A DNA stretch of 64,000 bases from Eledone cirrhosa (Eukaryota), in NCBI GenBank assembly GCA_964016885.1, contig OZ024740.1, positions 349,990,001-350,054,000 on the forward strand. The letters run 5' to 3'. A program made the translations under genes and the position numbers. A model generated the notes under the pieces. That model searched no databases. It was not told the origin of the DNA and saw only the letters and a list, made by a program, of their open reading frames with translations. Of the stretch, positions 61,549 through 62,080 are shown in pieces; positions within the stretch are counted from its first letter, which is position 1, and each line of letters opens with the position of its first letter.

Positions 61549-62080
61549 AATATATATATATATGTAAAAACAAATAACGAAACGAAATTAAATTTCGTTT
61601 CGTTTGTAACTCACTTTTGTATGACTGACGCTTAAACAATTAAGTTAAAGATGTACATCCATATATGTATACTGAAATACTAGTATGCATATGAATACAC
61701 ACACGTATACATATGTAGATGTACCAAGTCTTTCACTGGTTACTTAACTGTGAGTATCCAGCTATTCTGTATGTAAACACACAGACAAACCGGTTTTTAG
61801 AGTCATACTGGTTTTTGAGGAAACACCTTTCCTCTATTCTCCAGAAAGCCAGACAAGGAATATTGAACTAGTTTCGTTGTTGTTACAACTCAACAGCAAT
61901 ATTTACCTATCTACCGGCCTTTCTGGCCGGTAGATAGGTAAATATTGTATTCATATGCATACTAGTATTTCAGTATGCATATGTAGATGTACATTTTTAA
62001 CTTAATTGTTTAAGCGTCAGTCATACAAAAGTGAGTTACGAACGAAACGAAATTTAATTTCGTTTCGTTATTTGTTTTTA
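61549..62080 (-). ncRNA. second hammerhead repeat family in inverted arrangement, hammerhead at 61859-61903 (minus). Its left part is also at 45056-45240
   Basis: Minus strand reads aatattg-CTGTTGA-gttgt(aaca)acaac-GAAA-ctag-TT-caatatt. The plus arm 61926-62080 mirrors the minus arm but lacks the core. Confidence 0.8.

Follow-up and report, generated by a model that had tools for sequence, protein, structure and literature searches.

A truncated, probably dead hammerhead retrozyme copy in Eledone cirrhosa, its likely insertion by Penelope-like enzymes, and a promoter-like module in complete units of the family

The DNA analysed here, called the window throughout, is a 64,000-nucleotide stretch of the Eledone cirrhosa genome (assembly GCA_964016885.1, contig OZ024740.1, positions 349,990,001 to 350,054,000), and its positions 61563–62078 hold one copy of a hammerhead repeat family, F2, that is 5'-truncated, 5'-inverted and embedded in (TA)n. 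An initial annotation, made from the letters alone, had placed a second, diverged hammerhead family here beside a 504-bp family (F1); it overlooked that the copy is a truncated unit to which 133 bp of its own 3' end are joined in inverted orientation, and was silent on element class, integration marks and a promoter-like module. We read the locus as a truncated, likely dead copy of a retrozyme that would have been copied into (TA)n by the enzymes of a Penelope-like element (PLE), with a likely small nuclear RNA (snRNA)-type promoter in each complete unit, and we put the probability of this reading as a whole at roughly 60%. The features of the copy and its flanks are as follows.

60460–61562, no strand: left (TA)n target array
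61567–61926, minus strand: sense part of the F2 unit (unit positions 107–466), 5'-truncated, 360 bp, 98.9% identity to a full unit
61843–61914, minus strand: type I hammerhead (Rfam HH9, E 1.3e-7; fold z -4.06)
61890–61896, minus strand: catalytic core with A6>U at 61893 (5 of 7,827 F2 cores lack A6, the window copy included)
61925–61947, plus strand: inverted copy of the stem I 5' strand at the inversion joint (unit 114–136), 23 bp, 100% match
61946–62078, plus strand: 3' end of the unit in inverted, 5'-truncated form (unit 334–466), 133 bp, 96.2%
62079–62616, no strand: right (TA)n target array

Between the two arrays the F2 island measures 516 bp; its sense part stops at the main 3' end of the F2 family, and the 133-bp inverted copy makes the element look as if it had terminal inverted repeats. 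The minus-strand hammerhead motif is present as first quoted, with its core at 61896–61890, a 6-bp stem I with internal loop, a stem II of 4–5 bp with an A-rich loop (61889–61876), the GAAA at 61875–61872, a palindromic stem III, and a predicted cleavage site after the GUU triplet between 61866 and 61865. At its gathering score Rfam returned no match within the window. Scored by E-value instead, Hammerhead_HH9 (RF02275) matched 61914–61843 at 35.4 bits (E 1.3e-7) and an intact F2 copy at 38.6 bits (E 2.4e-8), that is 35–39 bits against a gathering score of 52; the match spans the full length of the model, keeps the core, the 6-bp stem I, the internal loop and the six-letter loop 2 in register, and differs from it in a stem III that has no closing loop. 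The predicted fold of this region also beats 200 of 200 shuffles (z -4.06).

Evaluating the core across the family, we found A6 in 7,822 of the 7,827 F2 cores, and all of the first 100 cores among the matches listed read CUGAUGA. The A6>U change, correctly noted at the outset (U at 61893), is a lesion of this copy and not a family trait, since only five cores lack A6, and the proposed check of the family core came out as CUGAUGA. Set against the published definition of the core (C3 U4 G5 A6 N7 G8 A9, G12 A13 A14, A15.1-U16.1, H17; PMC3088659), the F2 family fits, with U as H17, and the window copy fails at A6. We rejected selection on A6 in individual copies, as its rate of change (5/7,827, 0.064%) lies within the background of rare variants at A and T sites (4/2,976 and 2/3,264, with 96 of 122 rows kept), so that the conservation of A6 speaks for a young family rather than a selected one. 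Four of the five changes are A>T, spread over F2 and its subfamily F2b, and transitions number 0 of 5; A6>U gives extra pairing with the GAAAC stretch, and the A>T change may be templated. For a hammerhead that naturally carries A6C, the published cleavage rate is below 0.1 per minute (PMC3088659), and the window copy has no neighbouring hammerhead for dimerising and has lost the promoter-like module. By analogy with that variant, and because it stands alone and without the module, this copy is likely near-inactive, in keeping with the initial suggestion that it may be inactive, and the stretch is likely a truncated, dead copy of a coding-free hammerhead tandem repeat.

The family to which it belongs is large. 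Its unit is 466 bp long and stands in tandem arrays of 1 to about 31 units, and a genome-wide search (3.0 Gb) returned 7,827 F2 cores against 0 for a reversed-pattern control, so the claim of a second hammerhead family holds. Matches to F2 numbered 280, mostly at 94–99% identity and over many contigs (39 of 428 candidates scored), and the exact core is present in 28 of 30 distinct full units. For F1, F2 and their subfamilies together, the pattern of core plus stem III had 40,547 matches in the genome versus 15 for the reversed pattern, which argues that the motif does not arise by chance. F2 aligns with the 504-bp F1 unit from end to end (57%, 307 of 537 columns), bearing out the earlier observation that their distal ends align. 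An F2 unit contains no open reading frame (ORF) of at least 150 aa. Since its units are tandem and coding-free, we classify F2 with high confidence as a non-LTR (long terminal repeat) retrozyme: its tandem units lack coding sequence and each hold a single type I hammerhead, primer-binding site and polypurine tract not having been sought separately. Retrozyme units in this genome range from 328 to 504 bp. The repeat is also present in contigs of four of the six runs listed, under three organism labels, an observation that says nothing on expression.

For the fold, we aligned 20 of 62 distinct hammerhead windows, picked to represent the subfamilies, with truncated or damaged copies left out. Seven of 17 pairs change on both sides (slid controls reach at most 3), 90.9% of cells pair, and 125 of 132 cells pair over 11 single subfamily copies with distant families included. 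Counted as events, the double changes are six between F1 and F2, one inside F1 (G-U to U-G) and one inside F2, where a stem II pair goes from U-A to A-U in subfamily F2b; one paired form or the other is present in all 100 F2 copies among the matches listed. Three of five covariation measures exceed all 500 shuffles, and the two least inflated by kinship do not (130 of 500 and 359 of 500 shuffles as high); the tests are mixed, and formal significance of the covariation is not established. The initial claim that stems I and II differ and still pair thus stands for the six pairs changed on both sides and fails at the first stem II pair, which is mismatched in the F1 types (14 of 20 rows, U-U in F1), as is the U-U stem II base of axolotl HHR_Amex2 (PMC7229834). 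Loop 2 reads AACA in F1 and F2, as had been stated, and AAUA or AAGA in other subfamilies; in family F4 both loop 2 and the internal loop differ from the other families. The further claim of a tertiary contact between loop 2 and stem I remains plausible from alignment of the putative contact positions with the HH9 internal loop and hexaloop, and covariation does not show it, those positions being invariant or unpaired. Stem III is a palindrome whose 2-nt 'loop' stays self-complementary through a change from UA to GC, which points to two hammerheads pairing, since such complementarity matters only in a dimer; a short palindromic stem III acting as a dimer is the rule for canonical animal type I hammerheads (PMC4209133). 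The modelled F2 fold is accordingly that of a canonical animal type I hammerhead with dimer-type stem III. Selection on the ribozyme fold, the central proposal of the initial annotation, is supported by the compensatory changes and the intact family core, with the two shuffle-level measures standing against it.

We next consider how these copies came to lie in (TA)n. A census of 61 loci yielded 102 F2 segment 3' ends (a few possibly counted twice where loci overlap), with 55 at unit 465–6 and 37 at 382–400, and 84 of the 102 continue into TA-rich DNA. The 102 5' joints, by contrast with these fixed ends, spread evenly over the unit, with none at the predicted cleavage site. Among 25 loci chosen by place, 16 have segments on both strands, 7 on one strand only, and 2 hold no scorable segment; the inverted part ranges from about 60 bp to several kb, and about a third of loci have none. 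F1-type insertions end at the homologous site, 4–5 nt beyond a T-run, which implies that copying starts inside a longer template. PLE insertions are known for partial tandem arrays, 5' copies in inverted orientation, a 3' extension in some cases, and targets in microsatellites (PMC8557442), and an anole PLE starts reverse transcription from two internal sites (PMC11167929). F2 insertions display the PLE set, namely 5' truncation, partial tandems, an inverted 5' copy, alternative 3' ends and a microsatellite target, and F2 is very probably mobilised by PLE enzymes.

Candidate enzymes are at hand in the genome. A young PLE family (150 scored matches, 94–100% amino-acid identity, open frames to about 800 aa) shows DKT and further motifs typical of the Hydra clade, which targets (TA)n; at 22 of 30 loci it carries a hammerhead of its own and terminates 3' in (TA)n. 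Pfam returned 0 families for three PLE ORFs, and the Hydra label comes from motif comparison only; whether the mobilising PLE would belong to that clade we regard as evenly balanced. A second candidate source of the copying enzyme is a PLE in the window, Neptune-like by motif (54259–57581 and 39064–42386, minus strand), with a reverse transcriptase (RT), a C-terminal GIY-YIG-like region and a CX4CxxC linker; it is interrupted by stops or frameshifts and has (TA)n on its flanks. Our searches found no autonomous coding partner for F2 and included no general survey of the pseudo-LTRs (pLTRs) of other PLE families, so the PLE partner is one that we infer and have not found. An 8-letter stem III palindrome is common to some retrozyme subfamilies and the Hydra-type PLE hammerhead, and mixed dimers of retrozyme and helper PLE RNA are conceivable.

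The cycle we propose would begin with transcription from a unit's own promoter, starting about 30 nt past its TATA box, just upstream of the ribozyme, and running through the following units, most likely by RNA polymerase II (Pol II). Two neighbouring hammerheads would then dimerise by their palindromic stems III and cut, and the resulting unit-length RNA, holding the next unit's promoter, would be circularised by a host ligase; as the cut RNA contains that promoter, an upstream promoter could survive retrotransposition. Finally, a PLE protein with reverse transcriptase and GIY-YIG domains, probably of Hydra type, would nick (TA)n, prime at one of two internal sites and copy round the template, giving 1 to 30 units, often with an inverted partner. 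Three alternatives considered below (a linear template, host read-through and Pol III) each replace one step of this cycle and are not mutually exclusive. As to the template, the retrozymes of coral, mussel and axolotl build up as circular RNA (PMC7229834), and by analogy we hold a circle to be the somewhat favoured form; structure prediction puts an F2 circle at 66% paired. The alternative, that an uncleaved linear multimer is the template and the hammerhead regulates or clears RNA with no role in copying, is the strongest of the rivals and still rather unlikely: the anole PLE inserts unprocessed RNA in vitro with its hammerhead dispensable (PMC11167929), the lack of 5' joints at the cleavage site (0 of 102) fits a linear multimer as well as a circle, and F1-type cores tolerate the stem II base mismatch in the 14 of 20 rows mentioned. 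Besides the circles found in those animals, the nearly identical arrays of about 30 units that have an inverted partner tell against it, being easier to obtain from a circle, though they may also have grown by later tandem expansion.

The first step of the proposed cycle draws on complete units, one of which lies in the neighbouring F1 array.

58156–60014, no strand: array of tandem 504-bp units of sister family F1 that includes an inverted 5' copy and lies in (TA)n
59046–59119, plus strand: promoter-like module in a complete F1 unit, with octamer box 59046–59057, TCAG box 59063–59066, TATA box 59089–59094 and predicted start 59119

Complete F1 and F2 units share an octamer-containing 12-mer 80–100 nt upstream of the core, and the octamer is present in 29 of 30 distinct full F2 units. 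The same box stands at -76 to -78 in the RNase MRP gene and in every independent host U6 locus whose upstream DNA is intact (3 of 3), and in these genes a TATA box at -30 follows 46–48 nt after the octamer; the match runs to 12 letters at the single conserved place of the U6/MRP promoters. With a matrix built from these four host promoters (three U6, RNase MRP) and no retrozyme input, the octamer was the best site in all four units tested, and the shuffles scoring as high (of 2000) numbered 0 for F1, 0 for F2b, 6 for an F2 variant and 108 for an F1b copy with a changed letter. As a test of prediction, a genome search for an octamer box upstream of a core whose stem III differs gave 1,259 matches against 0 in the control, mostly a 328-bp family, F4, with tandem, inverted and (TA)n anatomy like that of F2, plus rarer decayed families. 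In one rare family the module is preceded by two or three tandem boxes that are octamers or resemble them. Six further host U6 matches gave one readable start, located in (TA)n and without the octamer box, and in two U6 array copies an insertion shifts the box to -270; the inserted element is a SINE-like repeat (short interspersed nuclear element) of about 190 bp that is frequent in the window (3982–4398, 7534–7932).

Comparison of 16 module copies, 11 of them retrieved with the octamer in the query, adds two further boxes. A TCAG box, which was not part of the query, emerges in the 75% consensus, the spacer being only 33% alike; it lies 24–28 nt upstream of the TATA box, as in 14 distinct host U1, U2 and U5 promoters (25–28 nt). 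The octamer precedes a TATA-like box by 40–44 nt in 16 of 16 copies, and a pyrimidine-A step falls exactly 30 nt after the TATA box in 8 of 16. The host U1, U2 and U5 promoters have no octamer and carry TCAG(T) at -55 to -58, which we infer to be the proximal sequence element (PSE); they also show an AT-rich box near -90 and a TATA box near -30. A TATA box in Pol II snRNA genes would set this host apart from vertebrates. A two-box Pol II model trained on the host U1/U2/U5 genes (18–27 bits for these genes, which were scored without leaving them out) gave top rank among 482 positions to the frame anchored on the octamer in half of the copies (8 of 16), with a same-frame shuffle rate of 0–4.2%, and gave host U6/MRP -9 to -14 in that frame. 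From its spacing and boxes we take the module to copy neither host promoter class and to be a hybrid of both. On this evidence complete units may well carry a functional promoter, a view we hold with modest confidence, and, if the module is one, Pol II would be rather more probable than Pol III, being favoured because the template passes through T5–T7 tracts.

Several results weigh against the overall reading, beginning with the two covariation measures that shuffles equal. The F1, F1b and F2 units show no similarity to the pLTR of one Hydra-type PLE family (33 loci), and none of 149 module loci has a PLE ORF attached to the module; at the 14 where an ORF lies nearby, (TA)n always intervenes. 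Xenopus retrozyme dimers failed to cleave in vitro in 8 of 9 cases (bioRxiv 10.64898/2026.07.22.740005). Eleven of the 16 compared copies were found via the octamer query itself, and under the Pol II model F2 has one of the lowest scores (-3.7 bits, with 41 of 1000 shuffles as high). The octamer-to-TATA spacing of 40–44 nt departs from the 46–48 nt of host U6/MRP, and the host U1/U2/U5 promoters lack the octamer altogether. Folding predictions for F1, F2 and F4 place the octamer within a hairpin (7–8 of its 8 nt paired), and the TATA box falls within a palindrome, so that RNA structure could account for their conservation. Finally, the predicted start shows no excess of 5' joints (2 of 102 versus 2.4 expected). 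That the window's sense part begins within 2 nt of this start is a coincidence, with no pile-up across copies, and an apparent pile-up at unit 1–20 proved an artefact of short missed matches and duplicated loci.

It is from these points that the second alternative draws, in which the same retrozyme is transcribed by host read-through only and the boxes are RNA hairpins or protein sites on the RNA, for instance for the PLE protein. Read-through is the published default (PMC7761336), and the octamer's pairing, a spacing that fits neither host class and the weak F2 score all suit it, as does the position of the module 35–110 nt downstream of the main reverse-transcription start, a possible RT-binding place (PMC11167929). 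In 9 of the 16 copies, however, only 2–5 octamer letters are predicted to be paired and the letters are kept while the partner arm changes; the host-box match is 12 letters long at the sole conserved place of the U6/MRP promoters, and the three boxes keep their order and spacing, with the pyrimidine-A step at exactly 30 nt in half of the copies. We judge read-through alone unlikely, at about a step below the linear template. Less likely again is a module that works as a Pol III (U6-type) promoter for a short RNA ending at the T-runs near the unit end, with leaky read-through feeding retrotransposition. Among the host genes read, the octamer box is confined to Pol III type 3 genes, and T5–T7 runs do stand near the 3' ends of F1 and F2 units; against this, the octamer-to-TATA spacing is 4–6 nt shorter than in host U6/MRP, the absence of T4 runs from the unit body, a Pol III signature, is not beyond chance (456–625 of 2000 shuffles), and F1-type insertions end 4–5 nt past the T-run, so the template reaches beyond it. 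A MITE-like (miniature inverted-repeat transposable element) TA-targeting DNA transposon, or a satellite spread by unequal crossing-over, with the hammerhead-like motif incidental in either case, is suggested by the 133-bp inverted ends inside (TA)n and by the long arrays, and was dismissed as very improbable on the insertion census, where the inverted parts vary from about 60 bp to several kb or are missing in about a third of loci and so are no fixed terminal inverted repeats, 5' joints are random, 3' ends fixed, copies lie over many contigs and stems covary.

Placing a probably PLE-copied retrozyme with a promoter-like module among known systems, we find its closest counterparts in the non-LTR retrozymes of coral, mussel and axolotl. 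These likewise consist of tandem units that lack coding sequence and hold a single type I hammerhead; they are low in GC, run to thousands of copies, share their genomes with PLEs, and in amphibians have a short stem III in need of dimers (PMC7229834). Their units are about 170–400 nt long versus 328–504 bp here, and the portion of that paper available makes no mention of (TA)n insertion, fixed 3' ends or inverted 5' copies, the word 'inverted' being absent from it. The vertebrate retrozymes of Li, Clavereau and Pollet (2026, bioRxiv 10.64898/2026.07.22.740005) share a proposed PLE dependence, argued there from co-occurrence and pLTR homology and here from insertion anatomy; in its available part that preprint does not mention promoters. 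Hydra-clade and other endonuclease-bearing (EN+) PLEs, and the non-autonomous Chlamys elements such as MRC1, resemble F2 in partial tandems, inverted 5'-truncated copies, a hammerhead, an optional 3' extension and (TA)n targeting (PMC8557442). F2 differs from the EN+ PLEs in having no ORF and two 3' ends some 70–85 nt apart as against a 30–40-bp tail, and its ribozyme is canonical with an internal loop, not the minimal PLE type (PMC8557442).

As for promoters, a 2020 review states that retrozymes do not seem to carry them (PMC7761336), in contrast to the promoter-like module present here. Two hammerhead repeats with promoters of their own are nonetheless on record, newt satellite 2 (Coats et al. 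1994), whose internal promoter is of snRNA type and serves Pol II, and a schistosome satellite (Ferbeyre et al. 1998) with a promoter reported as Pol III (both cited in PMC2220036). The newt repeat differs in being amphibian, the present module mixing U6/MRP with U1/U2/U5 features and being kept across many diverged families. An octamer and a PSE are reported for the newt promoter. The schistosome promoter is said to be gene-internal with tRNA-like boxes, whereas the boxes here lie upstream. A literature search that placed most subscription papers and all supplements outside its scope found neither the F2 family nor a retrozyme U6/snRNA promoter described; related invertebrate families may appear in the supplementary data to PMC7229834, PMC8557442 and the 2026 preprint. 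Neither the ribozyme nor the class of element is new in itself; the new point is the promoter-like module in complete units.

The remainder of the window holds several other features. At 62617–63559 a third hammerhead-like element in (TA)n has 320-bp inverted ends and CUGAAGA cores at 63299 (plus strand) and 62819 (minus strand), lacks the octamer box and is probably an inverted pLTR of another PLE family. A decayed hammerhead unit at 2681–2921 (core at 2716), between TA/CA repeats, resembles some of the octamer-box families. Inverted-repeat pairs of 150–270 bp at 25541–26657, 22455–23558 and 10844–10996, some of which adjoin (TA)n, are probably other PLE-type insertions. Positions 29964–45240 and 45535–61735 form a near-identical tandem duplication of about 15.5 kb (99%), with an assembly gap (N, 45241–45440) at the joint, which may be a real duplication or two haplotypes joined. 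It includes a LINE-type (long interspersed nuclear element) ORF with endonuclease and RT (45929–49012 and 30357–33212, minus strand; 1028 and 952 aa open), which we take to be RTE-like, and the following second copy of the F2 end.

45073–45240, minus strand: duplicate of the F2 copy's 3' end, cut by the assembly gap (N, 45241–45440), 99.5% to 61537–61735

The single window copy is a dead end, and its significance lies in the family. For animal retrozymes the source of their strong, all-tissue transcription and the identity of the copying enzyme are open questions, and this genome offers testable answers at the sequence level: a putative promoter whose three boxes are open to mutation, and an insertion pattern (two fixed start sites, inversion, (TA)n) that implicates PLE proteins, a young Hydra-type PLE with long reading frames being present alongside the retrozymes. 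Natural covariation bearing on the dimeric hammerhead is a further yield, as is an initial outline of the snRNA promoters in this animal, of use for guide-RNA expression. At its widest, the picture would be one of self-sufficient transcription across a whole superfamily, in which over 40,000 hammerheads of about ten diverged families would have a hybrid snRNA promoter riding in a ribozyme-cut circle that Hydra-type Penelope enzymes paste into (TA)n; we give this about an even chance. If true, and taken with newt satellite 2, promoter capture would be recurrent in animal retrozymes and the read-through model would be overturned.
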